Shown here piece by piece: positions 30,348 to 54,238 of a stretch of 54,988 bases of DNA. The notes beneath the pieces are model-generated. The model was not told where the DNA came from. It ran no database searches and worked only from the letters and a program-made list of their open reading frames with translations. The position numbers were made by a program, and so were the translations under genes. Every line of letters begins with the position of its first letter. The stretch's first letter is position 1. The stretch is from a phage. The stretch is from NCBI GenBank assembly GCA_021081985.1, contig GCA_021081985.1_3639.2, one strand, 5' to 3'.

Positions 30348-30348
30348 T

Positions 30349-34892: not shown

Positions 34893-34923
34893 TCTCTTAC
34901 AACCGCACAAAGTAAAATTGTAC

Positions 34924-37806: not shown

Positions 37807-37809
37807 CTC

Positions 37810-38433: not shown

Positions 38434-38626
38434 ACTTACACCCTTAAAAATAAGGAAAACAGACAGGCGACCCCACCAAATACATTGACACAACTTAGAA
38501 GAATACTCCACAATCTTTTCCAGCCTTTAACAGCAGCACTTTCCGAGAATCCGCAGAGTGCCAATATGAAATTGGAAATTCCAAGAAAGGCCAGTAGTAA
38601 ATTTAATAGTATATCTATCATCGGCA

Positions 38627-38983
38627 TCACCCAAACCACATTACTATCCCTAATACTACGAAAAGAAACCCAAGTAGGCAAAAGGAGGTTATTCTCTCTT
38701 TCTTTTTAAACTCTTTTGTTGGGTTGTAATTTTCCTGTTTTAATACAAGGTTCTCATCATACCAAGTAATCCGTTGCCCGTTCAGGTTATGATACCGCTT
38801 ATGAAGCTGCACAGCTTTTTTGGCAATATCTCCTGTTGGGTATGGGTTTGAGTACATGGCCTCGCCATCATCTGAAACTACTGTTTGGTTTATCGCATTA
38901 CCATCGTAGTACACTTCCCAGCAGGATTTAGTTATAACCCCATCAACCATGTCTTCTATGTGGTATATATTGTACTTGCTCAT
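38627..38983 (-). CDS. Hypothetical protein with C-terminal hydrophobic segment
   Basis: 118-aa ORF. Confidence 0.35.
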   Translation of the reverse strand: MSKYNIYHIEDMVDGVITKSCWEVYYDGNAINQTVVSDDGEAMYSNPYPTGDIAKKAVQLHKRYHNLNGQRITWYDENLVLKQENYNPTKEFKKKERITSFCLLGFLFVVLGIVMWFG

Positions 38984-39351
38984 GCGTACTCTTTTATCTC
39001 CTGGATTGCATCTTTCGATAGCCAGCTATCAACAGGAATACTACTGAAATCTTTGTGCCAACGATGCGGTTTGTGTCCCTCCCTATGATCAAGGGTACAT
39101 ATATCCTCTGGCACTTTAAAGTGAATGCCTTCGATATCGTAATAGTTTCCGTCTATAAGGGTATAGACGTGCCCTTGTATCCTGCTATAGCATATCTGCG
39201 CCTGTGGGAAAATGTGTTTAAGTACTAATGCCACTTGGTAGCACTTTCCATTCTGACCAATCCACACACTATCTACTTGTGGTGGGAAAATATCTCTGAT
39301 TTTTCTTATCAGAGATGTTATATGGTTCTCTACACAACCTGCCATACTCAT
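38980..39351 (-). CDS. Hypothetical protein
   Basis: 123 aa; ATGA overlap with the downstream gene. Confidence 0.4.
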   Translation of the reverse strand: MSMAGCVENHITSLIRKIRDIFPPQVDSVWIGQNGKCYQVALVLKHIFPQAQICYSRIQGHVYTLIDGNYYDIEGIHFKVPEDICTLDHREGHKPHRWHKDFSSIPVDSWLSKDAIQEIKEYA

Positions 39352-39626
39352 CGCCTTGTTTTTAGCAGTGCCTTGAAAAATTTTCTCGCTGCTTTTTCTG
39401 CTTGCCCCTTACGAGAAAACTCGTTCTCTCTGAATCTCCATTTCCCAGTGTCTTCGTCCTTCCAGACTTCTGTACTAAGGAAATCAAGAATATTATCTGT
39501 AATCAATTCAATATCCTCATCTGTAAACCAATATTTTATGGCCCCGCTATAGACCTCTCGGAGGTACTCTCTACGGTCATCACCAGAAATCATATTTTTC
39601 CCTGATGGCTGCTCCCAACCCAACAC
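39348..39626 (-). CDS. Hypothetical protein
   Basis: 92-aa ORF. Confidence 0.35.
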   Translation of the reverse strand: MLGWEQPSGKNMISGDDRREYLREVYSGAIKYWFTDEDIELITDNILDFLSTEVWKDEDTGKWRFRENEFSRKGQAEKAARKFFKALLKTRR

Positions 39627-39767
39627 CTATAACTAGTAGTACTGCCACGAATACCAACCAAAAGAGATAAGCATTGCCAAAAATGGTTGTTGGAAACACA
39701 ACAATAAACAAAACAATCAGTACGACAGGAACCCCGATACACAAATTCTTCAGCACTTCCTTCATAA

Positions 39768-40088
39768 TTACAAACTGACCTCTTTCTTTGGTAAAGGTTT
39801 AAAGCATGGCGGTAATTCACCACCTAGCGACCAACGTAGAAGATAATTATACCCTGGGAGTCTCTTGATACCGCCTTCTCCTTTATACATCCACGGAACA
39901 AGCGTAGATTCAAATTTTCTCTTGCCTGTCTTTGACTCGTACAATAGCCACATACCTTGGGTATTGGTTCCTGTATCCTTCCAGTTTATCTGCCAATCTG
40001 ATGTTCCCACTAATTCGAAATTGTCTGTTTCTTTCTTTTTCTTAAACCATCCAAACATTACTCTATCCTCACTGATACGTAGCGCCAT
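39768..40088 (-). CDS. Hypothetical protein
   Basis: 106-aa ORF. Confidence 0.35.
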   Translation of the reverse strand: MALRISEDRVMFGWFKKKKETDNFELVGTSDWQINWKDTGTNTQGMWLLYESKTGKRKFESTLVPWMYKGEGGIKRLPGYNYLLRWSLGGELPPCFKPLPKKEVSL

Positions 40089-40215
40089 GTTCTTTTGTAA
40101 TATTCCACAGTTTCCTCCAGTTTGTCAAGAGGAACTCTAGTTTTCAATACCCACCAGTTCCCTAGATATTCGGCAGAACATGCACTCATCCTGCCACATA
40201 TGGTATACGTTGCCA

Positions 40216-40416
40216 CTACATCCTCCACGTTAGTTTCTGAGCGATCTCCAACAAGGCATCTATCTTATGCATATACTCTTTCCTTTTCTCACTGCCAGGA
40301 GGGAATTGGTCTCTCGTTTGCATCAAGGTTTTTATCTCTTCGGACAGATGATTAAGGATTTCAACGCGCTCTCGTTTCCGACCTAGTTGTTCAATTTCTT
40401 TGTCACGACAATTCAT
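40216..40416 (-). CDS. Hypothetical small protein
   Basis: 66-aa helical, charged ORF. Confidence 0.3.
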   Translation of the reverse strand: MNCRDKEIEQLGRKRERVEILNHLSEEIKTLMQTRDQFPPGSEKRKEYMHKIDALLEIAQKLTWRM

Positions 40417-40496
40417 AATGTACCTTACAGTGTTGTCAAACTATGAGAGTATGATAATATACGGTACAACTATTTACAATAGTAGGAGACGATCTA

Positions 40497-40777
40497 TGAC
40501 TGTAAAAATCCCAAGAGGCGGTAAACCAGACAGAAATGAATGTGATAAGCGTGTAAGGGTAGGGAGAATGTGTCTGATTTATGGAATAACCTATCCACCA
40601 ATGGTGCGACTTAATGGTAAAATATGTAAGGTCATCGACATACCAAAAGATAACACAACACGCTTCTTGTGCAAGGTCAAAGGTGAAGAGAAGGTTTTTA
40701 ACATCCCACACAAAAACCTAACAGTTTTGGATCTTAATGACAACATTGTTATCTCCAAATACCGTTGTATAAACTAA
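40497..40777 (+). CDS. Hypothetical protein (plus-strand gene inside the minus block; start trimmed to MTVKIPRGG)
   Basis: Promoter-like TTGTCA ... TGATAATAT upstream, RBS TAGGAGACG, and a bidirectional terminator just downstream. Confidence 0.4.
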
Positions 40778-40782
40778 AATAA

Positions 40783-40810
40783 AAGCCCCACATGGGGCTT
40801 TTATTTTTAT
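40783..40810. terminator. Bidirectional rho-independent terminator between convergent genes
   Basis: AAGCCCC-ACAT-GGGGCTT flanked by an A-run upstream and a T-run downstream. Confidence 0.6.
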
Positions 40811-41547
40811 TCAAAATCATCAACACCGCTATCGGTAAGGTTTTCTCTGCTCGAAGGTTTTGTCGAAAGAACTTGCTCAAGCAGAGAGGAAAATTTCTGC
40901 AAATTACTTACAGAAGAAGCCCCTGCTGCCATGGCAAGCATATCCACTTCTTTTTCGGTAGGTTGCGTCCAGTCTAGAAACATCTCTTTCATGTACAACG
41001 TTGATGTCCCTATTGGTGTGGCGTGGTCAACCCTATCAGCATAGACCCAGAAAAGAACTTCTTTCTCTATACATACACACAAAGCAGCACCCAACGAGTA
41101 TCCTGCAACGAGGGATGGATATCTTGCAACGAGGATCTCGACATTCAGGTCATCCCAGTGAAATACAACACCCAAACACTTCATATCCACAATGTCTTCC
41201 ACTGCGGGTCTTAGCTCCTCATGGGAAGAAAAGGAGTCATAGTTGATATTCTTTATGAATTTAAGAACGTCTTGGCGGTTGTAGGCACAATCGTTATCAC
41301 CTTGCTTCCAGTAACCCCAAAATGAAGTCGATAAATTCAACCAAAAACTTGCAGTTGTCCCTAATGTCTCAGCCAGTTTTTCAGCCACATCCTCTGATAC
41401 CTCTTCCATGTTATAAAGGATGGTTCTCAACTTATTTACCGGTATACCAGATCTGTCAGCAAGATCATCCACACACCAACCTAATGGATCCAGATATTCG
41501 TGGATAATAACCTCCCCTGGTGACACTGGTGCTCTTTCTTTCTGCAT
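40807..41547 (-). CDS. HTH (XRE/HigA-like) DNA-binding protein with a C-terminal domain of unknown function
   Basis: N-terminus after the internal Met: PVSPGEVIIHEYLDPLGWCVDDLADRSGIPVNKLRTIL ... ASFWLNL resembles HigA-type HTH antitoxins; RBS AAAGGAGAA precedes that ATG. Confidence 0.5.
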   Translation of the reverse strand: MQKERAPVSPGEVIIHEYLDPLGWCVDDLADRSGIPVNKLRTILYNMEEVSEDVAEKLAETLGTTASFWLNLSTSFWGYWKQGDNDCAYNRQDVLKFIKNINYDSFSSHEELRPAVEDIVDMKCLGVVFHWDDLNVEILVARYPSLVAGYSLGAALCVCIEKEVLFWVYADRVDHATPIGTSTLYMKEMFLDWTQPTEKEVDMLAMAAGASSVSNLQKFSSLLEQVLSTKPSSRENLTDSGVDDFE

Positions 41548-41600
41548 TCTTTCTCCTTTCTCTCTACCAGAAAACCCTGCTTTGCAGGGTTTTGTTACTA

Positions 41601-41804
41601 TCAGCATTTAGGCGAGCATTTATCGCACGGGCATGAAATTCCGTGGAAACACAAACCTGTTCCGTCTTTCTTGACCCCTGTTCCACCACATTGGGGACAA
41701 CTATCGTGTAAGCATTTTGTTTTTGTTGTCTCCTCTTTATCTTTATTAAAGAAGTTTTTCATAATCATTTTCTGTTGTTCAATCGTAAACATTTGCGTCC
41801 CCAA
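41601..41804 (-). CDS. Small Cys-rich zinc-binding protein
   Basis: 67 aa with C-x2-C and C-x-C clusters (CPQCGGTG, CPCDKCSPKC). Confidence 0.35.
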   Translation of the reverse strand: MGTQMFTIEQQKMIMKNFFNKDKEETTKTKCLHDSCPQCGGTGVKKDGTGLCFHGISCPCDKCSPKC

Positions 41805-42085
41805 AATCTTTCAAGTGCTTCTACCTCTTCCATGTTTGGGAAGATACCATAGAAACAGAACTTACCTTTAGAGAAGTACGGAATAAATACCCGTCCATCA
41901 GATGTTTGAAACATCTTGTCAAAATTTGGTAGCTTCAGGTGGGATTTTATAGCCTCTTTAATACTTTTATCCCATTGATGCTGCCATTTACAGGCTTTTA
42001 GGTACTCACTAATATTGTAAGAACCTACTCTCCCCAAGATACTGGTGAGAAACTTTTTGTTTTTACTAATAATCTTCTTTTTCAC
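41765..42085 (-). CDS. Hypothetical protein
   Basis: 106-aa ORF. Confidence 0.35.
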   Translation of the reverse strand: MKKKIISKNKKFLTSILGRVGSYNISEYLKACKWQHQWDKSIKEAIKSHLKLPNFDKMFQTSDGRVFIPYFSKGKFCFYGIFPNMEEVEALERFWGRKCLRLNNRK

Positions 42086-42314
42086 TCAAAAACCTCGTTT
42101 CTTCAAACTGCTCTGGTGTCAATAAACTTGTTCCTACACGACTGCCATTGCCACACATAATGGGCACGGCAATCATGTGGCTATCCTTTTCTGCATTACC
42201 TAAATCAAGGTACTGCCCATAACGTTTGATAAGTCGGATACTCATTTTTGAATTAGCTAAAGCCCTTGTATTATAGAGATAATCCTCAAGGTACAAATGT
42301 AGAGCGTTTGCCAC
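42066..42314 (-). CDS. Hypothetical protein
   Basis: 82-aa ORF. Confidence 0.3.
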   Translation of the reverse strand: MANALHLYLEDYLYNTRALANSKMSIRLIKRYGQYLDLGNAEKDSHMIAVPIMCGNGSRVGTSLLTPEQFEETRFLSEKEDY

Positions 42315-42316
42315 CT

Positions 42317-42565
42317 TTAAAGATTTTGATAAGAATAATTTATTACGCCGGACCAGTTTTTTTTTTCTTCATGCAACCCTCGCTTGTGCCTGTACATTGC
42401 TAAAGGCCATACAGAACTCACTATAAAGCATTTCCATGCCCAACCCCATGGAGTCTTTGGTGCATAAGCTCGTTCAAGCCATTTACTCTTTTCCATCTCT
42501 GCCGTATGTACAAACCATACGGCAATATACAGTGCAACTATAATGTAGATAAAGCCATTAATCAT
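42317..42565 (-). CDS. Small membrane protein
   Basis: 82 aa; hydrophobic N-terminus MINGFIYIIVALYIAVWFV. Confidence 0.3.
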   Translation of the reverse strand: MINGFIYIIVALYIAVWFVHTAEMEKSKWLERAYAPKTPWGWAWKCFIVSSVWPLAMYRHKRGLHEEKKNWSGVINYSYQNL

Positions 42566-43619
42566 TCATCTTATCCCAACACATTTGTTGTGCTGTCATC
42601 AAAACATCGGCAGCAAAGTTAAGATCTGTTGTCTTCGGTAAATGCGTGTTCTTGTACAGAGTGTTACGAATATAATCATCCTTCTCTTCTGCCCAAGCCA
42701 AGAGCTTCTCCAAAGACCATGCACCATTTCTGATTGCAAGAAGCTCCTGAGCATCAGGTCTTTTTACAAGAACTTTCCCTTCCGTCAGGATTTCTTCTGC
42801 TTGTCGCATCAACCTAACCAAGTGCATACCATGCTTTGAATCGAAGCCATACTTTTCTTCTAACTCATGACGTGCTGGGTTTCTGTTTTCAACCCATGTC
42901 CAGTAGTTCTTATGCTTTTCCTTTGCTTGTTTATGGTCATCTGCTAGATACTTAACGATTAAAATTGGTTTACGTTTCTTATCCTCGCCAGAGAACTGTT
43001 CGTATGGGACTTTACGAATAGAGCCGTCAGAGTTAAACAAGCCAGCATTGTCGTGTGTTCCGATCACGCCATAGATATTATCACCCATTGGTAAAAAGAC
43101 ACACAACTTGTTAAGGTCATCCAGCATTTTCTGGAAGTCTTTGTGTTTTGTAAGATTATCATCCATCCACGAGTGTGTCAAGCGCATGAACTCTTTTTGT
43201 GTTGGTTGCTCTTTAGGCTGCGGGTTATTAATCCATTTATTATGGCCTTTGATACGCTTCAGTTGCGCCATCGCGTACCCAGAAAATGTAAAAGCAACTT
43301 TGCTGGATAGGAGTTTTGGCGCTTGCTCGCGTAGGTACTCGTAAACATCTGAAGTTTGCAGAATGTCACCTCTATCAACAAACATAAGCTCGATGATGTT
43401 TGGGTTCATATCAACGAACAACTTCATGTAGTTTGTTAGCTCATACAGCTTACCATCCTCTTCATCAATAAGAGTCATTTCTCTGTCAACGAAAAATGGG
43501 GTAAGAATGCTTTTAGGCTCTGCACAATAAATTCCGCGAATATCCACATCGGATGTTGGTAAGTTAGTTCCATAGGCAATACTACCGGAGTAACAACGCA
43601 TTAGTTCTAGTTTCTTCAT
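42558..43619 (-). CDS. Pol-beta superfamily nucleotidyltransferase
   Basis: 353 aa; N-terminal G-S-x4-G-T-x4-S-D-V-D-I (GSIAYGTNLPTSDVDI), the minimal NTase signature shared by OAS/CD-NTase-like and RNA-modifying NTases. Confidence 0.55.
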   Translation of the reverse strand: MKKLELMRCYSGSIAYGTNLPTSDVDIRGIYCAEPKSILTPFFVDREMTLIDEEDGKLYELTNYMKLFVDMNPNIIELMFVDRGDILQTSDVYEYLREQAPKLLSSKVAFTFSGYAMAQLKRIKGHNKWINNPQPKEQPTQKEFMRLTHSWMDDNLTKHKDFQKMLDDLNKLCVFLPMGDNIYGVIGTHDNAGLFNSDGSIRKVPYEQFSGEDKKRKPILIVKYLADDHKQAKEKHKNYWTWVENRNPARHELEEKYGFDSKHGMHLVRLMRQAEEILTEGKVLVKRPDAQELLAIRNGAWSLEKLLAWAEEKDDYIRNTLYKNTHLPKTTDLNFAADVLMTAQQMCWDKMND

Positions 43620-43996
43620 TGTTGTACCTTTTTGTCTTTTCTTGCATTATCCCAAAAATTAAGGATATTTTGGTATCGGATCTTGTCTTCCATATATTCA
43701 GCTTCATCCCGAAGATCGCATACATGATCTATTAAGGCACATACCTCATTATGGTATTCTGTATTACTGGTGATGTGCTTAATCATACAAGATCCTGCTT
43801 TCCATTTCGAGAGGGAGTATCTCAGATTATCATCTTTTTCTGTGGGGGAAGCATCAACTAGCACCTTTGCCCTGTTCCCTTGTATCGTTTGTATTGTTCC
43901 TTGGCGCAGTTCGTTATTACCCCAATAGATAAATACTGTATCGCCAACAAATAATCTTGTTCCGCTTGCATCCCTCATTTTATGCCCCCAACACAA
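43616..43996 (-). CDS. Hypothetical protein
   Basis: 126-aa ORF. Confidence 0.35.
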   Translation of the reverse strand: MCWGHKMRDASGTRLFVGDTVFIYWGNNELRQGTIQTIQGNRAKVLVDASPTEKDDNLRYSLSKWKAGSCMIKHITSNTEYHNEVCALIDHVCDLRDEAEYMEDKIRYQNILNFWDNARKDKKVQQ

Positions 43997-44363
43997 AGAA
44001 ATAGTGAACTGTTACCGCTGCGAAGTAAAGCGTTTTGTAAATCAATTGTAACCAGCAATCTCTGTTTGTATACACTTTTCCTGCTAAGATATAGCTACCT
44101 GTTACGAAATGCTCACACACCCAGATCCCCATCAGGAAACCACTAAGCAAGCCTCCTGTTGGTGGTGTTAGTGTGGTAATCATTGCAATTCCTTCGAGGA
44201 AAGTGAATATGAAGAAATATGAGAATCCTTCTCTTGCACATTTTATTCCTCTGCCAGTAACACAGGTATGAACTAAACCTATGAGACAAAAGATCGTCCA
44301 AAGTACATACAATGTATAAACCATAAACCACTTAACCCAAAAAAAAAATGTTAACCTCTCCAA
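43980..44363 (-). CDS. Putative membrane protein
   Basis: 127 aa with several hydrophobic stretches. Confidence 0.35.
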   Translation of the reverse strand: MERLTFFFWVKWFMVYTLYVLWTIFCLIGLVHTCVTGRGIKCAREGFSYFFIFTFLEGIAMITTLTPPTGGLLSGFLMGIWVCEHFVTGSYILAGKVYTNRDCWLQLIYKTLYFAAVTVHYFFVLGA

Positions 44364-44393
44364 CCCTATCAGAGAGGTTTCAGAAATGATTTG

Positions 44394-44891
44394 TTACTCA
44401 CCTTTCAGCTTAAAACTTTTCAATGTTTTGATAAAGTTTTTCTCTGCTGGTGTGTAAGTGTGAACGAAACCTGTTTCTTCACAGGTGTAGGTATCATTAA
44501 TCTCCATCGCATGTTGAGGGATAAATGCACCTTCAGGAGCAGGTTTATATTCTGGGTTGTAGATAAACTCCGGCAGCACAACAGCTACAGCAGTCATTGC
44601 TCCGTTCAAGGCTTTCTTTTCTTCACGCCACCACGCTACTGGGTAAGTCTCTAAAGACATTGCCTGGTCAAGAAAATCTTCAAGCACGGACTGATAACCG
44701 CCATTCAAAACAATAATGGTCTTATCTTCTTCTTTCCAGCATTTCAGCCAATAGTGTGCAGTGATCTGCTCTGGTGTATATGCTTCACCACTATGCAAAA
44801 CCATAAGCTCTGCAATGGCGTGTGCTGATTGGATACCAGCATGGATACCGGAGATATACTGATTAACAATACAATACATTCTTGTTTTCAT
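44394..44891 (-). CDS. Hypothetical protein, possibly PTH2-like peptidyl-tRNA hydrolase fold
   Basis: 165 aa; spacing of AGIQSAHAIAEL, a conserved W, IVLNGG and MTAVAVVLP resembles the PTH2 core. Tentative. Confidence 0.3.
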   Translation of the reverse strand: MKTRMYCIVNQYISGIHAGIQSAHAIAELMVLHSGEAYTPEQITAHYWLKCWKEEDKTIIVLNGGYQSVLEDFLDQAMSLETYPVAWWREEKKALNGAMTAVAVVLPEFIYNPEYKPAPEGAFIPQHAMEINDTYTCEETGFVHTYTPAEKNFIKTLKSFKLKGE

Positions 44892-45106
44892 TTTTGTTTT
44901 TTCCTCAGAATTATTCTATCTTCACTAAAAATTTCCTGTAACCCAGCAGCTATCAGTGCAAATATTGCTACCCACCATACAACTAACAGGAGTACCCCAA
45001 CAAGCAAATCTCTACCTGTGATCTGTTGCTCAATCCTGTAGGTAAAAATAAAGAAAGCTACGGATACTAAAGCACCAACAAAGAAGTAGATAAACACTTC
45101 AGTCAT
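44888..45106 (-). CDS. Small membrane protein
   Basis: 72 aa, two hydrophobic helices. Confidence 0.3.
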   Translation of the reverse strand: MTEVFIYFFVGALVSVAFFIFTYRIEQQITGRDLLVGVLLLVVWWVAIFALIAAGLQEIFSEDRIILRKKQK

Positions 45107-45434
45107 TATCTCTTTTCTCCAAATCCCGTTTCTCCAAGTATCCTTTTACCATAAGTGCTACAGCGTAAATTCCCACAAGACAAATACAAAATGTAAAAAT
45201 AATAGGTAAAACCATTACCGCAAACATCATAAATAGCGGTCCCGCAACAGTAATGAATGCTGTTCCAAGCAACAATAGAAATACTACATATTTATCTGCC
45301 GTCTCATCCACCTTCTTAAGATACACACCTAAACACACAGAAGACAATAGGAATGATAGAATGGACAGCAACAGATACCAATTATCAATAAAGATGATAA
45401 TTGGACCAGCAACATTTTCTAACCACCACATCAT
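45099..45434 (-). CDS. Membrane protein
   Basis: 111 aa, three hydrophobic segments. Confidence 0.35.
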   Translation of the reverse strand: MMWWLENVAGPIIIFIDNWYLLLSILSFLLSSVCLGVYLKKVDETADKYVVFLLLLGTAFITVAGPLFMMFAVMVLPIIFTFCICLVGIYAVALMVKGYLEKRDLEKRDND

Positions 45435-45448
45435 ATATACTTACCTCT

Positions 45449-46693
45449 TTAGAATAACATATCCCTGCTGATTGCTTTACGAATAGCATCAATACGGGCT
45501 ACTCGCACAGCTTCACCAATCTCTTTACCATTCTTACCCTTTTCCAGAAGGGGTTTTGTTATAGCTTTAGAATCAACTTTTGTCATAGCGTCGTAGGCTT
45601 CCAGCAAAATATGACCTTGAAGATAAGGCTTATGCCTAAAATCACCACCTCTTCCTTTAGCATCACAATAACACGCATCTGCAAGTGTGTAAACCTTCAT
45701 TTTCTGATCCGCTTGTCCAGCAGCTTCAAATATTTTCATGATGCTTTTTGGTTTCAAACCGTTGTTACCATCTCTGGGAGAGATGGCGTGCACTTTTGTG
45801 TGATTTTCTGCAACATATTTTGCCGTGTCACGATAGATATTATAAATCTTCAACCTTTCACACAAGGATTGGATAACATCTACACCAGCTTTCTCATGAC
45901 CATGAAGATTACCATTGTCCTTGTAAGTTATAGCTTTGCCAAAATCATGGCACAGCACAGCAAACTTGGTCAGTGGATCAGCTTCTAATTCATCAGCAAC
46001 CCTTAACGCTAGAATTGTATGGGTGTAAGCATCCCCTTCTGGGTGATGTTCTTTAGGTTGTTGCACACCACGTAGGGCTTCCAGTTCAGGAAGTTCGCCA
46101 ATACGTCCCATATTGACAGCAAAAGATCTGAAATAACTACTCTTTAAGGCTTTCAACATTTCCTTCCATTTACGCTCGGCGCTTATTTCTGCCAAAGAGT
46201 GTCGGTTGTCATAAGCCAGTTTAAAAGTTTCTGGATGGATATGCCATTCTTCCCCAAGCTGGGCTTTAAATCTAAACAGGCGTAGAATACGTAATGGATC
46301 TTCAATAAACGCCTCTGATGTATGACGTAATGTTTTAAGTCCTAAGTCAACCTGACCGCCAAAAGGATCAATAATCTCACCACTATCAACATCCATCGCC
46401 ATGGAGTTGATGGTAAGATCTCTACGTGCCAAATCCTCTTCCAGTGTTACATCTGGACTAAAGCATACCTCAAATCCTTTATGGCCTTCGCCTGTTTTTC
46501 TTTCTGTGCGTGCAAGAGCGTACTCTTCTCTTGTTTCTGGGTGAAGATAAACTGGAAAAGATGCGCCAACTTGTGTGAACCCTCTTTTCAGCATCTCTTC
46601 ATGCGTAGCACCAACAACCACATAATCACGGTCTGATATTTCACGACCTAACAATTTATCTCTTACTGCGCCACCTACCAAGTATACCTTCAT
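45449..46693 (-). CDS. cca: CCA-adding enzyme (tRNA nucleotidyltransferase) with C-terminal HD domain
   Basis: MKVYLVGGAVRDKLLG, RDYVVVG, EEYALARTERK, RRDLTINS, GEIIDPFGG and EDPLRILRLFRF closely parallel the E. coli Cca head domain (recalled); C-terminal HDFGKA ... HGHEKAG gives the HD motif. Confidence 0.8.
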   Translation of the reverse strand: MKVYLVGGAVRDKLLGREISDRDYVVVGATHEEMLKRGFTQVGASFPVYLHPETREEYALARTERKTGEGHKGFEVCFSPDVTLEEDLARRDLTINSMAMDVDSGEIIDPFGGQVDLGLKTLRHTSEAFIEDPLRILRLFRFKAQLGEEWHIHPETFKLAYDNRHSLAEISAERKWKEMLKALKSSYFRSFAVNMGRIGELPELEALRGVQQPKEHHPEGDAYTHTILALRVADELEADPLTKFAVLCHDFGKAITYKDNGNLHGHEKAGVDVIQSLCERLKIYNIYRDTAKYVAENHTKVHAISPRDGNNGLKPKSIMKIFEAAGQADQKMKVYTLADACYCDAKGRGGDFRHKPYLQGHILLEAYDAMTKVDSKAITKPLLEKGKNGKEIGEAVRVARIDAIRKAISRDMLF

Positions 46694-47016
46694 TTCTTCG
46701 CCCACGTATTCATATAATTAACAATATCTTTTACGGTTCTCTTTCCGTCCAGTGGATAAACCATGTCATCGCTCATCCCACCGTGTTTTAGCATTGCTAC
46801 CAGTCTAGTATATACCTCTTTTGGTCTTTTGCAAGTTCTTTTCTTCCATTTATGACCGTCTGGGGAGTACTCCTTATCTTCAAGAGAGATATGAAGGATG
46901 TCTCCTATAAACTCTTTTGCCTGTGTGCTGTAAAGCGGACGGTGGAATATATAGAATTTCATTGCTTGCTCCTTTATTGTAATAACAATATCAGTGCAAG
47001 CTACATGTGTCAACAC
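46690..47016 (-). CDS. Hypothetical protein
   Basis: 108-aa ORF. Confidence 0.35.
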   Translation of the reverse strand: MLTHVACTDIVITIKEQAMKFYIFHRPLYSTQAKEFIGDILHISLEDKEYSPDGHKWKKRTCKRPKEVYTRLVAMLKHGGMSDDMVYPLDGKRTVKDIVNYMNTWAKK

Positions 47017-47044
47017 ATAAAGAAAAACCCGCTAAAAAGCGGGT
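47017..47044 (-). terminator. Putative rho-independent terminator (minus strand)
   Basis: On the minus strand AACCCGC-TTTTTA-GCGGGTT is followed by TTTCTTT. Confidence 0.45.
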
Positions 47045-47052
47045 TATCTCTC

Positions 47053-47334
47053 TTACCATGTTACAAATATGTTTATAGATGTGCCTTGTTTTGTTGGCTG
47101 ATAGCTAATAATATCTACCGTGAAACCACCACCACGAAGATCGCCAACAATATGAGGCAGGTAATCACCCATTTCCTCCGGGAACTGTAGTGACATACCC
47201 ATTCCAAATAGACCTTTCTTTGCACATTGGCTGATCCCGTTTACTATCTGGTCGTACAGTTCCACCAGAGATTTTGGGGTGTCCTTTTTCGACTTGTTCG
47301 CTATCTCTCTCATTTTGCTGGCGACATTTGCCAT
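47053..47334 (-). CDS. Hypothetical protein; overlaps the 3' end of the Dam-like gene in another frame
   Basis: 93-aa ORF with protein-like composition; about 170 nt overlap with 47165..47845. Confidence 0.35.
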   Translation of the reverse strand: MANVASKMREIANKSKKDTPKSLVELYDQIVNGISQCAKKGLFGMGMSLQFPEEMGDYLPHIVGDLRGGGFTVDIISYQPTKQGTSINIFVTW

Positions 47335-47845
47335 CTTTACCTCTTAAAAAATAGAAAGGCTTCAAATTAAGGGTGTTCTTTTTGTCCCACACATACCATG
47401 CATACCCGCTTCCATCTGTCTTACCATCCTCTGTAAAAGATGGTCTTTGAGAAAGTACAAGCAGAGATGTTGGGGGATTATCTTGCCACCACTCCCACCT
47501 TTTCATACTTTCAAGAAAACCAAGACGTAGAAGCATGATAACGACATCAGCGTCACGCAGAGCTTTCTCAACAAATTCTTGAGCCAGTGAGTATGGAGGA
47601 TTAGAGATTATGATGTCTGTGTGATTATACTCTGTTGCCAGATAATCAACACCTTGACGTATTTCTCCCCAAGCACTTCCGATTGGTAGAAAATTATAAA
47701 TCCTACCGGAAGCTCTGCACGGCTCCATATATTTCTTTTTCATATCTATGGGGATGACTTCCAACAGGGCTTCAACAGCCCATACTGGGGTTTCATACGT
47801 GTCGTATTCTCTCCGATCACCCTTCCTTTTCAGGGGTGCTACCAT
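47165..47845 (-). CDS. DNA N6-adenine methyltransferase, phage Dam-like (true 3' end uncertain)
   Basis: YETPVWAVEALL near the N-terminus, DIIISNPPYS (NPPY catalytic motif), VVIMLLRLGFLES and YAWYVWDKK; the last 55 aa of the ORF look like readthrough. Confidence 0.6.
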   Translation of the reverse strand: MVAPLKRKGDRREYDTYETPVWAVEALLEVIPIDMKKKYMEPCRASGRIYNFLPIGSAWGEIRQGVDYLATEYNHTDIIISNPPYSLAQEFVEKALRDADVVIMLLRLGFLESMKRWEWWQDNPPTSLLVLSQRPSFTEDGKTDGSGYAWYVWDKKNTLNLKPFYFLRGKDGKCRQQNERDSEQVEKGHPKISGGTVRPDSKRDQPMCKERSIWNGYVTTVPGGNG

Positions 47846-48792
47846 CAGTTACCAACCTTTTCGATAGTTTCTTTCAGAATATCTTCGGAAACACTAAGAA
47901 TTTGATTCAGTAGAATGTCTCTTTTGTGTGGTATTACTCTGGCTTCATTCTCACCATATTGCATGTTGTTTAATTGTACAAGAATTTCTTTTAGCTCGTC
48001 AACATTAAAACCATCAAAATCACGTTCGTTCAAAGTTGACATATTGAAACTAAAATTCTCGCCACCAACCGCAATGTTCATAAGCATTTCTTGTACCTCA
48101 CCTTTAGGAACAGCATCTATGTTTTGGGGTGTGACATTCTTAACCACTGTTGTTTTTGTGGTTTTTGAGCCTGTTACATACTTCAGCCCTTGTTGCTCTC
48201 TTCGGATATTCTCTTTATCCAGTAAAGCGGCTTCTGTGCGTGCCAAAATATCTTCTTCTGTCAACCAAACTTCCCCACCACCTTTAATGGTTTCCATTTC
48301 TTCAGGTGTTAGCACATCTTTATAGAAATAATCGAAGACACGATCAAAGTAGTCTTTTTGGAACACAGCTTGGCGGTAAATGTTGGATCCGTCTCCACCT
48401 ATCCAACCCTGATAGTTATGGAACATAAAAATTGTCAATGGTGAAACAGTTCTACGCTCACATGCCAACCATAATACTGTTCCTGCTGAACACACTTGGC
48501 CTTCTGCATGAACAATAACCATGGCCTGACTTTCTCGGATGGCGCTAACGTATGCCATAGCAATAGCAACATCTCCACCCAATGTATTTATAATAATGCG
48601 TACCGTATCCTCTGGATTGGCTGCACGAATTGTTTGTAACCGCTCTTGGTGATCTTCCAACCAATGCATCTCATTAACGTAAATGACATGATTATTAGCA
48701 TGAGCACGATATGTAAAAACATTAGCAGTCTCTACACGGTTAACGTTAAAATCATTACTCAGTTTTTGCATTACAACCTTCTCCGTTTTCAA
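47845..48792 (-). CDS. ClpP-like serine peptidase (S14 family)
   Basis: INTLGGDVAIAMAYVSAI ... VHAEGQVCSAGTVLWLAC parallels the ClpP active-site region INSPGG ... GQAASMG. Confidence 0.55.
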   Translation of the reverse strand: MKTEKVVMQKLSNDFNVNRVETANVFTYRAHANNHVIYVNEMHWLEDHQERLQTIRAANPEDTVRIIINTLGGDVAIAMAYVSAIRESQAMVIVHAEGQVCSAGTVLWLACERRTVSPLTIFMFHNYQGWIGGDGSNIYRQAVFQKDYFDRVFDYFYKDVLTPEEMETIKGGGEVWLTEEDILARTEAALLDKENIRREQQGLKYVTGSKTTKTTVVKNVTPQNIDAVPKGEVQEMLMNIAVGGENFSFNMSTLNERDFDGFNVDELKEILVQLNNMQYGENEARVIPHKRDILLNQILSVSEDILKETIEKVGN

Positions 48793-49252
48793 TGAGGATA
48801 CCCATCAAAATATGGCTATTACTCAAAAGCCAATCTATGTTTATGCCGCACTCCTCATCAACAATAACTTTGTCGCTATATCTGGAGCACCGGATAACTC
48901 TACGAGCATATTCAGCCGCTATAGCTGCTTGGTGTATAATTGTAAACCTATCAAGTTCATCTTTAGTAAGATGAATGAACTTAGATTTACCATTCATACA
49001 GATGAGATGCTCCAGCAACTCAATTCTGTTAGAGAACATCAATTCAGCATCCTTCTTAGCAGCACTTTCAGAATAAAACATACTAGCTAAGAGGCTTTTA
49101 TTAACAATTCTTAAAGAATTAGCCACCGTGGTCATATATCTGTTATAAAGCTCAGTAGCCATCTCTTCAAACACGTCAGGCTCTACAACACCACAATTCT
49201 GTAACTTTACCAAGGTATCGTTTGTTAAGACACTACAGACAGTATTTTTCAT
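48755..49252 (-). CDS. Hypothetical protein
   Basis: 165-aa ORF. Confidence 0.4.
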   Translation of the reverse strand: MKNTVCSVLTNDTLVKLQNCGVVEPDVFEEMATELYNRYMTTVANSLRIVNKSLLASMFYSESAAKKDAELMFSNRIELLEHLICMNGKSKFIHLTKDELDRFTIIHQAAIAAEYARRVIRCSRYSDKVIVDEECGINIDWLLSNSHILMGILIENGEGCNAKTE

Positions 49253-49258
49253 TGTCCC

Positions 49259-49567
49259 CTACCTAGCAATTAGATATTGTATCTTTCCGTCATCTTCCTG
49301 ATACCCAACATCTACAACATAGTATTCTCCAACATCAGGAATCAACAACTTATCCCCAACCTCGTACTCTTTTGGGGTATGGTATACCATTGATTCTGTA
49401 AAATATTTGTACTTATCCGTATCGTTAATGTTGCATGAAATTTCCATTTCTCCGTTGTTGTTGGGTATGAGAATATCCTCACCATTCTTTTTCCCAACCA
49501 CATAACCACCTACCAATGTTTTAACTAAGCACAGTGTTTTATTGAGTTTGTCTTGGAACTTTGGCAA
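49259..49567 (-). CDS. Hypothetical protein
   Basis: 102-aa ORF. Confidence 0.35.
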   Translation of the reverse strand: MPKFQDKLNKTLCLVKTLVGGYVVGKKNGEDILIPNNNGEMEISCNINDTDKYKYFTESMVYHTPKEYEVGDKLLIPDVGEYYVVDVGYQEDDGKIQYLIAR

Positions 49568-50183
49568 AAGAATCCTCCATTTTGTCCAGGAATGTTTCCA
49601 GGAGTTTTATTCTTTCTGGTGTGTTAAGATTAAGTGTTTTAATCCCTTTCATCTTAGCAAGATTGACAGCAGTAGCCGTGCCGCCTCTTGGATTACCATT
49701 CTTATCTTCTTTTGCGAAGTAGAGCACAAAGGAAGATGGCTTTGGGTTGTTAATATTCACTCCCAACACTTGATGCACATTCCTAGAATGTAACGCAAAT
49801 GCTGCTCTGTTTCTCAACAATGCTTGTGGGTTTGGATGCACCTTTTGCACCAACTCATCTCGGTATTCTATTTGATCGATATATAGATGGTTAATATATT
49901 GTAAGCCATAATCCCAGTTATCGTACAAATCCACTTCTTTATCGCCAAAACCTTTCCATGGTATGTAAATTTCTGCGAGTCTGTTACCATACAATATTTT
50001 GGTTTTATCGTCAAGGCTATCGAAATATCGCTGCATCCCTCTCTGGAACGCCGCATCAGCCCCTTCTGCCTTACCGCTCCGCAATGTAAACCCTAACCCA
50101 GCCAGTCTAAAAGCAGCGTCTTCCATGACGCTGATAACTTCTGGGGGTGTTTCACGAGAACCTACCCCAGTATAATAACGCAT
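49539..50183 (-). CDS. Hypothetical protein, possibly SLOG/DprA-like Rossmann fold
   Basis: 214 aa; N-terminal YTGVGSRETP and C-terminal GGTATAV are reminiscent of SLOG-family nucleotide-binding proteins. Weak. Confidence 0.3.
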   Translation of the reverse strand: MRYYTGVGSRETPPEVISVMEDAAFRLAGLGFTLRSGKAEGADAAFQRGMQRYFDSLDDKTKILYGNRLAEIYIPWKGFGDKEVDLYDNWDYGLQYINHLYIDQIEYRDELVQKVHPNPQALLRNRAAFALHSRNVHQVLGVNINNPKPSSFVLYFAKEDKNGNPRGGTATAVNLAKMKGIKTLNLNTPERIKLLETFLDKMEDSFAKVPRQTQ

Positions 50184-50191
50184 AAACCCCC

Positions 50192-50980
50192 TTATGATGC
50201 CATTGGTGTGTAAATACCTTTATCTCTGTCTTTCAACAATCCCTTGGCGATTTCCTTGACAACACCACCACGGACTACATCCTGTAGTTGATTAAATTGA
50301 ACAATACCCACACCAGAAATATTATGTCTGTGGAGAAAATCTTCAACCCATTCCAAACCAGAGACACCACGTATATCTTTTTGACTTTCATCCCCCATGA
50401 TGACAAGAGTGCAATTATCTGAAATACGAGTTACAATACTCAGCATTTCTTCTGGAGTGCTTTGTTGTGCCTCGTCAATCAGTAGAAAGCTGTTTTCATC
50501 AAACGATCTTCCTCTAATACTCTCCAACTCTTGCACCTCGATACGTCCATGCAGTCCATCTTTCAATGAATTATAATACGCCCCATCACCCATTCTTTTA
50601 CGAATTGTATCGAGCATATTCCTTACGTAAGGATATAGTTTCTCCAGAGTAGAACCAGGTTTGAATCCAGAGGTCTTTCCCGTTTGCACATATGGCCTTG
50701 CTACAATGATTTTATCTATCTCATTTTTCCTGAGAAGATCAGCAGCATATGCAGAGGCGAGATATGTCTTTCCTGTTCCAAAGATCCCTTTTGCTATAAT
50801 GATGTTACAGGTCTTAAGTTTTTGGAGGTAATCTTGTTGCTTTCTATTCATGGCAACAAGTGTTGGGGCACTATTTCTCTCTTCCTCAAACTTAGGCTTG
50901 TATTTCATCTTTCTTTCATCGCGTGCTTTCTTCCTTGCAGCAAGTTTCAAAGCACGCGTCTCTTTACTTCTTCCCATCAA
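50192..50980 (-). CDS. phoH: PhoH-like ATPase
   Basis: 262 aa; Walker A GIFGTGKTYLA, then RGRSFDENSFLLIDEAQ and the VIMGD region, typical of PhoH. Confidence 0.75.
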   Translation of the reverse strand: MMGRSKETRALKLAARKKARDERKMKYKPKFEEERNSAPTLVAMNRKQQDYLQKLKTCNIIIAKGIFGTGKTYLASAYAADLLRKNEIDKIIVARPYVQTGKTSGFKPGSTLEKLYPYVRNMLDTIRKRMGDGAYYNSLKDGLHGRIEVQELESIRGRSFDENSFLLIDEAQQSTPEEMLSIVTRISDNCTLVIMGDESQKDIRGVSGLEWVEDFLHRHNISGVGIVQFNQLQDVVRGGVVKEIAKGLLKDRDKGIYTPMAS

Positions 50981-50989
50981 AGGATCTCC

Positions 50990-51694
50990 TTAAGAGTTCA
51001 GAACAGATTTGGCTTTATTATAGTATGCAGTTCTTTCAGACAGATGATTTGTCCCACCATTCACAAGTTTTGTTATTTTTACAATATCGTCAGCATCACA
51101 GGCTGCATTAATATCCCGAGATTGCCAGTACCAACCAGCACTTAACACAGCATACTCCGGCTGCTCAAGAAGCTCTGGGTGATTAATCAAATCTATACCT
51201 AGAGCTTTGCCACAATCTCTATAATTGGCATAACCTGTAATCTGGATAAGGCCTCTTCCTTTATACTTTGCCCCATCACCATCTTTTTCCGGTGTATTGC
51301 CGAGTTTTTTTGCTAGGCTACCTGTGTCATACTTATCAAAGTATGCATCATTACCAAGCTCTCTGACATATTTAAACTCAGCAGACTCAACACCTATCTG
51401 GGATAGAAAACCAGCTATCCTGTTTGTGGTGTTAATATCTGTTTTCAAGAAAAGATTGTTTAGGGGTTCAAGGAATTTAGAATTTCTGTTTGCTTTTGCT
51501 CCGATAGGAAATATCTTGTCCAATTGCGCTTGTGTAAGTAGTGTATTCCCCCCGTTTGTCGAGTTAGCTTTTTGTATGCATTTTTCCAATGCGGATTTAG
51601 TGGCGGGGCCATAGATACCATCAGCCCCAGATTTTCCTACACTAAAACCACCATTTATCAGCATACGTTGAATTTCGGCTATCGCAGAGTTCAT
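50990..51694 (-). CDS. Endolysin: N-terminal peptidoglycan-binding domain plus glycoside hydrolase family 19 catalytic domain
   Basis: N-terminal GADGIYGPATKSALE (PG_binding_1-like); catalytic AGFLSQIGVESAEF, KYKGRGLIQITGYANY and SAGWYWQ are GH19 hallmarks. Confidence 0.7.
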   Translation of the reverse strand: MNSAIAEIQRMLINGGFSVGKSGADGIYGPATKSALEKCIQKANSTNGGNTLLTQAQLDKIFPIGAKANRNSKFLEPLNNLFLKTDINTTNRIAGFLSQIGVESAEFKYVRELGNDAYFDKYDTGSLAKKLGNTPEKDGDGAKYKGRGLIQITGYANYRDCGKALGIDLINHPELLEQPEYAVLSAGWYWQSRDINAACDADDIVKITKLVNGGTNHLSERTAYYNKAKSVLNS

Positions 51695-51709
51695 TTTCCC
51701 TCTTCTGTG

Positions 51710-52168
51710 TTAGCCCTCTCCAATTGCCTCACTAAAAGCTGTTTGAAAACTGGAAGCGACCCCAGCAAGTTTAATCGTAATTCTTTCTTGGTAAATTGCA
51801 TACGCTAGCTCATCTGGTGAAAGAGCTTCTTTCAGATGACCAGCCATTACACCCATCACTTTCTCAAGTGTGTCTTCAGATAACATCTTCTTGAGCCGTT
51901 TCTGGGCTGTGTTTAACTCTTTCTCAAGGGTTGGGTTAGAGTCTTTCTTGGCTTGCGCTTTCATCCTCTTCATGGAATCAATCATTAACTGAGTATCCTC
52001 AGTCACCTGATTAATCAATCTTGGAAAGATCAATTCTGCAAAAATATAGGCCAACTCTTCATGAGTTTTAAGAAGTAAGCTATCAATCGTTAATTTTGGT
52101 GCGTACAAGTTTTCTTCATTAATGATATCTGCCATGATATTATCCTCTACGGGTTGCCCGTGCTGCAT
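51710..52168 (-). CDS. Hypothetical protein
   Basis: 152-aa helical, charged ORF. Confidence 0.4.
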   Translation of the reverse strand: MQHGQPVEDNIMADIINEENLYAPKLTIDSLLLKTHEELAYIFAELIFPRLINQVTEDTQLMIDSMKRMKAQAKKDSNPTLEKELNTAQKRLKKMLSEDTLEKVMGVMAGHLKEALSPDELAYAIYQERITIKLAGVASSFQTAFSEAIGEG

Positions 52169-52286
52169 TATCTGCCATTACCTGAAACAATTCCTCTTCG
52201 GTAATCTTTCTTTTCTTGCGTTTTCCACTACGCAGTGCCAGCGCAAGCTCTTTTTCATATGCCTTTCGTAGAGTTTTCTTACTCAT

Positions 52287-52760
52287 TTAAATCCCCTCTT
52301 TCCACAAACCATCTTTTTTAACCCACATTTTTTGGTTATCAGAACCCCTGAACCTTTTGGTTGTAGGCTTAGTCATATCATACTTACCATCTATAACAAT
52401 GTCAACAAGATTCTTAATTCTTTCAGGTATTTCTTCAAATAAATACCCTGTCCACAGCCAAATGTTTTTATCATCTCCGTAAACTGACCGTACCTTTAAA
52501 ATAATCTTTATAACACCATCAATATTTTGCGGATCAAGTGGTTCCCCACCTAAAATTGAGAGTCCTTTTATTTGCTTACGTGCCAAATCCTTTATGATTC
52601 TATCTAAATGTTCATCTGTAAACACTTCGCCATAACTGTATGACCAAGCTCTTTGGTTAAAACAGCCGCGACAACCATGACCACAACCGCTAACCCAGAG
52701 GGAGCATCGCACTCCCTCCCCGTTGATCATATCTGTTGGTTCATAACCGCAGAAATTCAT
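52287..52760 (-). CDS. nrdG: Anaerobic ribonucleotide reductase activating protein NrdG (radical SAM)
   Basis: 157 aa; GVRCSLWVSGCGHGCRGCFN carries the CxxxCxxC radical-SAM cluster motif; sits directly downstream of the NrdD C-terminal exon. Confidence 0.8.
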   Translation of the reverse strand: MNFCGYEPTDMINGEGVRCSLWVSGCGHGCRGCFNQRAWSYSYGEVFTDEHLDRIIKDLARKQIKGLSILGGEPLDPQNIDGVIKIILKVRSVYGDDKNIWLWTGYLFEEIPERIKNLVDIVIDGKYDMTKPTTKRFRGSDNQKMWVKKDGLWKEGI

Positions 52761-53241
52761 GTATGTTTCACTCTCTCAATAACCTCTTGCATCTTACCTT
52801 TGTTGTAAGGACGGCTGTTTGGAGCAGACAAATATCCAGACACACGTCTAATCACACTTATTGTTTCTTCATCATGATTGCCACAAGAAGGACACTCGAA
52901 CCCCTTGGCTGTGGCCTTAAACTCACCAGAGAAGCCACACTCGTGACATCTATCTACAGGTTGATTTATACCAAAATAAGGGATGTATTCATATCCATAA
53001 TCCACTAAGGCTTCCAATGCTTGCATGTTGTTTTTTAGATTAGGAACTTCCACATAACCTATGTTGCCACCATTACTTATCTCAGCAAACCCACATTCAT
53101 AATCCCATTTGAAGAATGGATCAGACGTTTTCCACACTGGTTGATGGAACGAGTTTGTCAAATAATCTCTTTCAATTAACCCAGGATATGCTTCTTTAAG
53201 TTTTGTGGCAAATTTATAACACAGAGATTCTGCCGATGTAC
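52757..53241 (-). CDS. nrdD: NrdD (anaerobic ribonucleoside-triphosphate reductase) 3'-terminal exon; upstream boundary approximate
   Basis: C-terminal zinc ribbon CHECGF ... CPSCGN followed by glycyl-radical motif RRVSGYL and ERVKH tail. The frame stays open upstream of the annotated TTG start (...SAESLCYKFATKLKEAYPGLIERDYLTNSFH) up to an in-frame TAA inside the intron. Confidence 0.75.
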
Positions 53242-53514
53242 CGCTGCTTTCGCAGTATTTTTACGGACTAGACTATATCACGATCTTGTGACCACTCACA
53301 AGACCCTCCACATTTCGCCATTCAAGGCTACTCTACTCGCTTCTTCACATCAGGTGAGGCTGATGCTATGCTTTCGATAGTCGTTAGAGACAATTTCTTG
53401 CCTACGGGGTTAGCTCTGCCCCCAGCGGGGTTTAGCCTTTCTTACCAGCTTATTGTTTATTCAGCTATGCCCGTTTAGTGGAGTTATTCGACAACCATCA
53501 CTGGTTGAAGGCCC
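53242..53514 (-). other. Group I intron (ORF-less, about 270 nt) within nrdD; boundaries approximate (about +/-20 nt)
   Basis: Minus strand carries CUAAACGGG, R-like AACGACUAUC, S-like GAUAUAGUC (P7 pairing GACUA/UAGUC), a GNRA-capped hairpin CUGCGAAAGCAG before the 3' junction, and a possible P1 between exon ACAACU and internal guide GGUUGU. Confidence 0.65.
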
Positions 53515-54019
53515 AGTTGTGTCTAGGCGTGCCATATAAGCTAAATGCTAAACCACTTCGCTCTTTAAAATCAGCACAAATATCCTTCATATATTTCAGG
53601 ATATTCATTGCCATCTCTTTACGAACTGGCTCACCATGCAAAATTTCAACTGCTTCATAAAGACCTACATAACCAATACTGATTGATGCGTAGCCATTAA
53701 AGAAGAGTTTACTAATCTTCTCATCAGGTCCGAGCCGTGCAATAGCCCCCTCCATAAACATTGTAGGGTTCTGGGATGCTTTTACATCCATCAATCTACC
53801 GACTCTAACCATATGCGCTTTATATGCCATTTCCATGTGCTTTTCAAGCAATTCGGTAAACAGAGTTTTCTTAGATTTTGCTTCTGCTGCAATCATAGGT
53901 AAGTTTAGAGAGACAACACCAAGATTGAATCTACCATCATATTTCTCACCATGCTCTGTTGCATAATAAGATAAGAAACTTCTACACATTATGTTCGAAG
54001 TGGTTCGCAAGGTCACTCC
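53515..54019 (-). CDS. nrdD: NrdD internal exon; boundaries approximate
   Basis: Open frame (ORF 53498..54016 plus upstream codons) with NLGVVSLNLP, IMCRSFL and GYASISIGYVGLYEAV; ends near ...SLYGTP before the intron. Confidence 0.6.
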
Positions 54020-54238
54020 CGCACCATTACGTGCTGCTGCATGTCACCATGCAGATCAGACCATATCTTCATGCTTAAAGCATGTCTGCCGTTTGGGGTG
54101 TCATCAGCTTACACTCTACATCCTTACATTCATCAGGATTGGTCGTTAGGCATTTACGGTTGATACCGATTTAGCACGGGATTCCCTCCATAGAGGATTC
54201 CCCCGTTTAGGCAGATTTTACATGAGCAGTTATAGTTT
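54020..54238 (-). other. Group I intron (ORF-less, about 220 nt) within nrdD; boundaries approximate
   Basis: Minus strand CUAAACGGGGGAAUCCUCUAUGGAGGGAAUCCCGUGCUAAAUCGG closely resembles the T4 td intron core as recalled; R-like AACGACCA and S-like GAUAUGGUC show a compensatory P7 change (GACCA/UGGUC); GNRA hairpin CUGCAUG-GUGA-CAUGCAG near the 3' end; P1 candidate exon CAUGGGU with guide GCUCAUG. Confidence 0.7.

Follow-up and report, generated by a model that had tools for sequence, protein, structure and literature searches.

The locus examined here raises the question of what use a phage of Escherichia coli would have for a CCA-adding tRNA nucleotidyltransferase (Cca) of its own, the host already having a cca gene. 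The gene in question lies at 45449..46693 on the minus strand of a 54,988-nt stretch of phage DNA (contig GCA_021081985.1_3639.2 of GenBank assembly GCA_021081985.1), and this whole stretch is referred to below as the window. An initial reading made from the letters alone (the sequence-only reading) had proposed a Cca-type enzyme with an HD domain that maintains tRNA CCA ends, possibly against host toxins or defense systems. We estimate at roughly 85% the joint probability that the gene encodes a functional multifunctional Cca of the E. coli type and that its role in this lineage is repair and maintenance of tRNA ends, not tRNA maturation. The evidence for this reading comes from the family identity of the protein, its intact catalytic residues, purifying selection on the gene, conserved gene order, and the CCA encoded in the tRNA genes of related phages.

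Identity of the phage-encoded CCA-adding enzyme

The cca open reading frame (ORF), whose span includes the stop codon, starts from the ATG at 46693 and encodes a protein of 414 amino acids (aa) with the N-terminal sequence MKVYLVGGAVRD; the gene noted by the sequence-only reading is real. A GTG at 46705, in frame with cca, is an unlikely alternative start. The start codon of cca overlaps by 4 nt (ATGA) with the TGA that ends the small ORF preceding it, and the same layout is found in the annotation of Escherichia phage Av-05 (Vequintavirinae, Avunavirus). The window DNA is 94-96.5% identical to this phage and to Escherichia phages vB_EcoM_TH18 (hereafter TH18), 18-1-2, 19-1-2, and 24-2-1. Comparison of the window and Av-05 revealed purifying selection on cca, with 25.5 synonymous versus 10.5 non-synonymous differences and a dN/dS of 0.11.

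Profile searches identified the product as a multifunctional CCA-adding/repair enzyme composed of a class II tRNA nucleotidyltransferase head, a neck, and a C-terminal HD phosphohydrolase domain. The Pfam matches are the PolyA_pol head (PF01743, 9.5e-22), PolyA_pol_RNAbd (PF12627, 4.1e-6, aa 151-190), and HD (1.5e-7). Among the NCBIfam models, PRK10885 ('multifunctional CCA addition/repair protein') scores highest by 137 bits (422.9 bits, 1.1e-126), and its alignment is full length, with protein residues 1-408 placed on positions 1-404 of the 409 in the model. PHROG 2244 matches at 1.4e-144; none of these matches is attributable to chance. In a BLASTP comparison with E. coli K-12 Cca (b3056) the two proteins are 45% identical end to end and collinear, including the HD domain. 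Assignment to a poly(A) polymerase or to an unrelated nucleotidyltransferase family only was thus not the outcome of these searches.

All motifs named by the sequence-only reading were found, namely GGAVRD at residues 7-12, RDLTIN at 91-96, EDPLRILR at 131-138, and the HD pair H249-D250. Conservation was assessed in alignments of phage and gammaproteobacterial homologs containing 20 and 27 sequences. In the head, or Pol-beta nucleotidyltransferase, domain (aa 3-123, 46325..46687, minus strand), the invariant residues include motif A (G7-G8-A9-V10-R11-D12) with the catalytic carboxylates D21/D23 (DxD), the ribose-discriminating motif B (R90-R91-D92, RRD), and motif C (D109-P110..G113, DPxxG). 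The segment of aa 131-190 (46124..46303, minus strand) holds motif D (E131-D132-P-L-R135), motif E (R138..R141), and the neck/RNA-binding region matched by PF12627. Motif D (EDxxR) is the amino-acid template that selects CTP or ATP; its D132, P133, and R135 are invariant and position 131 is either E or D among the relatives. Both R138 and R141 of motif E are invariant. The HD phosphohydrolase core (aa 217-311, 45761..46045, minus strand) contains H217-P-E-x-D221, H225, H249-D250, G252-K253, H266, H298, and H302, and the last HD ligand, D344, lies beyond the core, further downstream at about 45662-45664. The metal ligands H...HD...D are intact, and H217, D221, H225, H249-D250, H266, H298, H302, and D344 are invariant in the phage and bacterial homologs.

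CCA-adding enzymes need the flexible loop that separates motif A from motif B in order to add A76, and this loop is deleted in CC-adding enzymes. In the phage protein the loop (residues about 55-80) needs no gap when aligned to E. coli Cca, and its E57, A59, L60, G68, and F74 are invariant; the gapless alignment speaks against a CC-only enzyme. The AlphaFold2 (AF2) model, built from an alignment without an E. coli Cca row, is confident and combines the class II nucleotidyltransferase fold with the HD fold in the head/neck/body architecture of a class II CCA-adding enzyme; the fold search does not tell enzymes that add CCA apart from poly(A) polymerases. A Cca-type enzyme with an intact HD domain, as proposed by the sequence-only reading, is thus borne out by the Pfam and PRK10885 matches, the collinearity with E. 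coli Cca, and the invariant residues.

The gene is already known as an annotated family member. It is labeled 'tRNA nucleotidyltransferase' or 'CCA tRNA nucleotidyltransferase' in the records of the Escherichia phages listed above, and the Av-05 ortholog, annotated as tRNA nucleotidyltransferase, is 97.6% identical. By tblastn, 508 of the 50,697 phage records on deposit contain a Cca homolog, which is full length in 207 and almost always carries the same kind of annotation; IMG/VR holds at least 376 further homologs. The view that such a gene is not standard phage equipment was therefore overstated, given these 508 records, the annotations in the nearest relatives, and the existence of PHROG 2244. 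A recent origin by host capture was ruled out by the 45% identity to E. coli Cca, the nearest cellular homologs being the Cca proteins of Pseudoalteromonas at 49-50% identity.

Encoded CCA in the tRNA genes of related phages

No tRNA genes were found in the 54,988-nt window. The complete genome of Av-05 contains 14 tRNA genes, TH18 contains 16, and the more distant phage PVP-SE1 contains 25. Encoded CCA was read by locating each acceptor stem and then the bases that follow the discriminator. By this procedure, CCA is encoded in 14/14 tRNA genes of Av-05, 15/16 of TH18, and 24/25 of PVP-SE1. The count for TH18 is probably 16/16, since its tRNA-Arg gene lacks CCA in one register and has an equally good acceptor-stem register, CTCCTCG-A-CCA, in which CCA is probably encoded. 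In E. coli all tRNA genes encode CCA and cca is non-essential (PMC11541572). With CCA encoded in the tRNA genes of both the relatives and E. coli, de novo CCA synthesis is not a need of this lineage. The maintenance role suggested by the sequence-only reading fits this observation, as well as the gene order described below, in which cca is accompanied by an RlaP-family nucleotidyltransferase and a Pth2-fold hydrolase.

Gene neighborhood of cca

Downstream of cca on the same strand lies a gene for a Pth2-fold protein of 165 aa (44394..44891, phrog_3668 'hydrolase'), a candidate hydrolase of peptidyl- or aminoacyl-tRNA that would attack the tRNA 3'-end ester. The Pth2 fold is present in this product; the Pfam match to Pth2 (PF01981) reaches 17.9 bits and an E value of 0.0038, below the Pfam cutoff of 23, and NCBIfam gave no match. 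It is followed by a gene for a DUF7205 protein of 126 aa (43616..43996, minus strand; PF23835, 2.5e-33), present in 10/80 of the viral loci surveyed below, and by a gene for an RlaP-family nucleotidyltransferase of 353 aa (42558..43619, minus strand; PF10127, 7.7e-14, 52.4 bits with a cutoff of 23; phrog_388, 1.8e-78). Members of the RlaP family add one or two nucleoside monophosphates to the 3'-OH of damaged tRNA (preprint PMC12776372). Between cca and the Pth2-fold gene are two small ORFs for predicted membrane proteins of 111 and 72 aa (44888..45434, minus strand), which are annotated as membrane or hypothetical proteins in Av-05 and kept in close relatives only.

Upstream of cca lies a small ORF of unknown function (46690..47016, minus strand, phrog_7526), which has 90 aa in the Av-05 annotation and stands upstream of cca in 11/80 viral loci. 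At 46985..47045 on the minus strand, a terminator-like hairpin (47045-47026) precedes a sequence that resembles a sigma-70 promoter (TTGACA-17-TATTGT with TG, 47013-46985), and a further terminator-like hairpin with 12 pairs and a T-rich tail follows the Pth2-fold gene (44353..44379, minus strand). All of these come from a consensus scan only, which is not evidence of function; judged by sequence, the upstream pair may mark the start of the cca transcription unit. An Rfam scan at gathering thresholds found no structured RNAs near cca; its only match, to a group I intron, lies at 54 kb.

Cronobacter phage GAP31, with a Cca 66% identical to that of the window, has the same succession of cca, the Pth2-fold gene, the DUF7205 gene, and rlaP. 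Conservation was further surveyed in 80 Cca-bearing viral loci from IMG/VR, which form 28 Cca clusters at 55% identity. RlaP is encoded within 10 kb and on the same strand as cca in 22/80 loci, and within 2.5 kb downstream of cca in about 20/80, sometimes overlapping the cca stop codon. The loci with this linkage are spread over 11 of the 28 clusters, so that it reflects more than shared ancestry. The Pth2-fold gene accompanies cca in 13/80 loci. No description of the cca-RlaP linkage, or of the tight order of cca, the Pth2-fold gene, and rlaP, was found in the literature searched, a search that did not reach the 2016 RNA-repair survey of Burroughs and Aravind, which is said to have given RlaP its name. 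Two other papers describe RlaP together with RNA ligases, not with Cca (PMC12776372; Iyer et al. 2021, PMC7824862).

The sequence-only reading had named an RNA ligase, an HD alarmone hydrolase, and a nucleotidyltransferase as companions of cca. All three are real, the nucleotidyltransferase being RlaP; the ligase and the hydrolase-like protein are encoded 27-33 kb from cca and do not form one locus with it, which leaves RlaP as the sole neighbor of cca among these companions. The ligase is an Rnl2-like RNA ligase of 344 aa (12440..13474, minus strand; PF09414, 1.3e-9; phrog_548, 7.5e-73; TIGR02307, 6e-10, below cutoff). The other protein (17536..18033, minus strand, 165 aa) resembles small alarmone hydrolases of the HD type: residues 21-153 match the (p)ppApp hydrolase of PDB entry 7smg at 8.5e-26, Mesh1 and Rel hydrolase domains match at 1e-7 to 1e-5, the RelA/SpoT N-terminal hydrolase region (TIGR00691) matches at 6.9e-14, and Pfam gave no match at an E value of 0.01. 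A DarG-like Macro-domain protein is likewise encoded far from cca (14004..14612, minus strand), two genes from the RNA ligase; it scores 21.7 bits with Pfam Macro (cutoff 22), matches the DarG model NF048014 at 1.8e-9, below cutoff, and is annotated as macro domain-containing in Av-05. From its sequence, this product is possibly an anti-DarT ADP-ribosyl glycohydrolase.

Proposed mechanism of tRNA end repair

The phage Cca would act in the following way: (i) the head domain would rebuild missing C74, C75, and A76 residues on tRNAs in a template-free manner, and (ii) the fused HD domain, as in E. coli Cca, would clear end-blocking 2',3'-cyclic or 3'/2' phosphates. The HD domain of the E. coli enzyme was reportedly described by Yakunin and colleagues in 2004 as a 2',3'-cyclic phosphodiesterase, 2'-nucleotidase, and phosphatase. 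Since CCA is already encoded in the tRNA genes of host and phage alike, the enzyme would make the infected cell better able to maintain tRNA 3' ends in a chargeable state. Two downstream products are its probable partners in this process: the Pth2-fold hydrolase would free the 3' end of blocked acyl groups, and RlaP would extend damaged RNA 3'-OH termini by one or two nucleotides. Cca probably cooperates with these two proteins, all three being expected to act on RNA 3' termini. We infer these activities and this cooperation, as well as a source of damage that would be either host exonucleases or defense effectors.

Several points weigh against this reading. The PRK10885 score lies 28 bits below the equivalog cutoff of 451, which is an annotation threshold and not a biochemical feature; we read the shortfall as divergence, not as a different function. 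The tRNA data come from the genomes of relatives, the window itself being without a tRNA gene. Pth2 was assigned by fold, without a significant sequence match, and the promoter and terminator matches, which are consensus-only, place RlaP in a transcription unit separate from cca. Moreover, 58/80 Cca-bearing viral loci have no RlaP within 10 kb. Finally, no experimental or biochemical study of any phage Cca was found in the literature searched; there, a yeast CCA enzyme served as a reagent only (PMC13219725), a small podophage nucleotidyltransferase is unrelated (PMC7291057), and RlaP is named only in passing (PMC6514570).

Alternative explanations

The alternative that survives best sharpens the repair reading and does not replace it. 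According to this explanation, Cca, the Pth2-fold hydrolase, and RlaP would serve specifically to undo the action of host immune effectors that put the tRNA 3' end out of use, among them CapRel/toxSAS enzymes, which pyrophosphorylate it, MenT/AbiEii-type nucleotidyltransferases, which extend it, GNAT toxins, which block it with acetyl-aminoacyl groups, and RNase toxins, which cleave the acceptor end. Defense and toxin systems modifying the CCA end are documented: it is pyrophosphorylated by CapRel and toxSAS enzymes and extended by MenT nucleotidyltransferases (PMC9712102, PMC11559606, PMC10435456), and in mycobacteria MenT3 is neutralized by overexpression of the CCA-adding enzyme PcnA (PMC11541572). 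A second cca copy beside that of the host suggests a special need, and cca is linked to the RlaP and Pth2-fold genes. The same genome also encodes the alarmone-hydrolase-like HD protein, the RNA ligase, and the DarG-like Macro protein, and the general idea has been published for jumbo phages, in which a CCA-adding enzyme, RlaP nucleotidyltransferases, and ATP-dependent RNA ligases are viewed as RNA repair against host RNase effectors (Iyer et al. 2021, PMC7824862). However, ordinary exonucleolytic CCA turnover could select for an extra Cca equally well, and cca is linked neither to the alarmone hydrolase gene nor to that of the ligase. In addition, the literature searched contains no experiment tying any phage Cca to any defense system, and the ability of the Cca HD domain to take off a 3' pyrophosphate is hypothetical. 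On balance, a dedicated counter-defense role is plausible, with the odds somewhat against it.

A stronger version would treat cca, the Pth2-fold gene, and rlaP as a dedicated and recurrently assembled phage cassette that rescues tRNA 3' ends from host acceptor-end effectors. In such a cassette, (i) the Pth2-fold enzyme would remove blocked, for example N-acetylated, aminoacyl groups, (ii) RlaP or pyrophosphorolysis would reset damaged or over-extended ends, and (iii) the HD domain of Cca would take off a pyrophosphate or a cyclic phosphate, with CCA restored by the head of the enzyme, which together would neutralize CapRel/toxSAS enzymes, MenT/AbiEii nucleotidyltransferases, GNAT toxins, and acceptor-stem RNases. 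We regard this proposal as doubtful; if true, it would be the 3'-end counterpart of the anticodon-loop repair by T4 Pnkp and Rnl1.

A biosynthetic role, in which Cca adds CCA de novo to phage tRNAs that do not encode it, is very unlikely for this lineage. The 14-16 tRNA genes of the lineage are compatible with such a role, and two CCA-less cases are known. The first is the tRNA-Gly gene of PVP-SE1 (locus L008, 8553..8626), the only one of its 25 tRNA genes without CCA, where the acceptor 3' strand ATGACGC is followed by the discriminator T and then TAA; the tRNA-Gly genes of Av-05 and TH18 encode CCA. The second is an unrelated Cca-bearing viral contig (L070, IMGVR_UViG_3300017527_000512, 21 kb around cca), in which none of the 12 tRNA genes within 10 kb of cca encodes CCA, the opposite of the situation in Vequintavirinae; this is suggestive of a biosynthetic function for Cca in some phage lineages. 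From the T4 literature, the host Cca adds CCA to some T4 tRNAs, and a rare CCA-less tRNA could be served by the host enzyme. In the closest relatives, CCA directly follows the discriminator base (14/14 and 15-16/16 tRNA genes), by which de novo synthesis is largely ruled out. Physical linkage of cca to tRNA clusters was not found either: the window has none, and any tRNA gene lies within 10 kb in only 8/80 of the IMG/VR loci.

The least probable alternative, which sees in the product a poly(A) polymerase, a different enzyme that tails RNA, or a split CC-adding or A-adding enzyme, draws on the Pfam head domain common to the product and poly(A) polymerases and on the 'Poly A polymerase' label of some deposited relatives, but is ruled out by collinearity with E. 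coli Cca, with no flexible-loop deletion, by the HD domain that poly(A) polymerases lack, and by the NCBIfam scores, with the PcnB models (TIGR01942, 78.1 bits, cutoff 305.65; NF008634, 52.2 bits, cutoff 702) covering the head only and scoring five- to eight-fold lower than PRK10885, and the A-adding model NF041569 reaching 41.9 bits (cutoff 1440) versus 423 for PRK10885.

Other features of the genome

The group I catalytic intron (54037..54277, minus strand) matches Rfam RF00028 over the full model, 1-253, with 80.9 bits (gathering score 50). It is flanked by the split ORFs 53498..54016 and 54230..54541, near an ORF for an NrdG-like activase (52287..52760), and the split ORFs look like an interrupted gene for an anaerobic ribonucleotide reductase.

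The whole window (1..54988) corresponds to the 54-kb record of the 18-1-2, 19-1-2, and 24-2-1 deposits, each consisting of 79 kb and 54 kb, about 134 kb in total, like TH18. Relative to the 120.9-kb Av-05 record, the window joins the region at about 82-103 kb straight to that at about 15-41 kb, and in the Av-05 record the terminase and DNA polymerase annotations are split; these differences in order point to assembly or permutation differences. The region 35000..38000 of the window is gene-poor, with a higher GC content (0.438) and a strongly negative AT skew. No convincing ORF, tRNA, or Rfam match was found there, and the equivalent region of Av-05 (26.3-28.2 kb) is unannotated.

Comparison with known systems

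The presence of cca alone changes nothing, as phages carry this accessory gene fairly widely and it is already annotated. Since 2021, several anti-phage effectors have been discovered that disable the CCA end of tRNA, and no phage counter-measure acting at this end was found in the literature searched. An E. coli phage that carries Cca beside a Pth2-fold hydrolase and RlaP, with tRNA genes in no need of CCA synthesis, offers a convenient genetic system in which to ask whether tRNA 3'-end repair lets phages escape immunity. The additions made here, the conserved order of cca, the Pth2-fold gene, and rlaP together with the encoded-CCA result, are modest; they make a counter-defense role directly testable.

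The direct orthologs of the window Cca are the phage tRNA nucleotidyltransferases of PHROG 2244, among them Av-05 gp068, GAP31 gp120, and the enzymes of PVP-SE1, 4MG, and phiEa104. Their identity to the window protein ranges from 97.6% (Av-05) to 64-66% in Seunavirus and related genera, the synteny is alike, and there is no substantive difference between them and the window enzyme. E. coli Cca has the same length, the same head-neck-HD order, and all motif A-E residues and HD ligands in common with the phage protein over its 45% identical full length. With CCA encoded in the tRNA genes on both sides, the expected role is also alike, repair and not synthesis. Unlike its E. coli counterpart, the phage Cca is encoded by a virulent myovirus and has diverged well past recent host capture; its gene lies in an early-gene block beside the Pth2-fold and RlaP genes, whereas E. 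coli cca has no such context.

In concept, the phage Cca resembles T4 tRNA repair, in which the PrrC anticodon nuclease is countered by Pnkp and Rnl1, and also the jumbo-phage toolkits, the shared idea being that phage enzymes restore tRNAs damaged by host effectors. Repair in T4 is directed at the anticodon loop and that by Cca at the 3' terminus, and the genome considered here, at about 134 kb, is not that of a jumbo phage. The mycobacterial PcnA is a class II CCA-adding enzyme that at higher dosage restores tRNA 3' ends altered by the toxin MenT3 (PMC11541572). It differs in being a host enzyme that is essential for tRNA maturation, in a genome where most tRNA genes lack CCA and with no phage involved; it serves as a precedent, at the level of mechanism, for a phage that brings an extra Cca.

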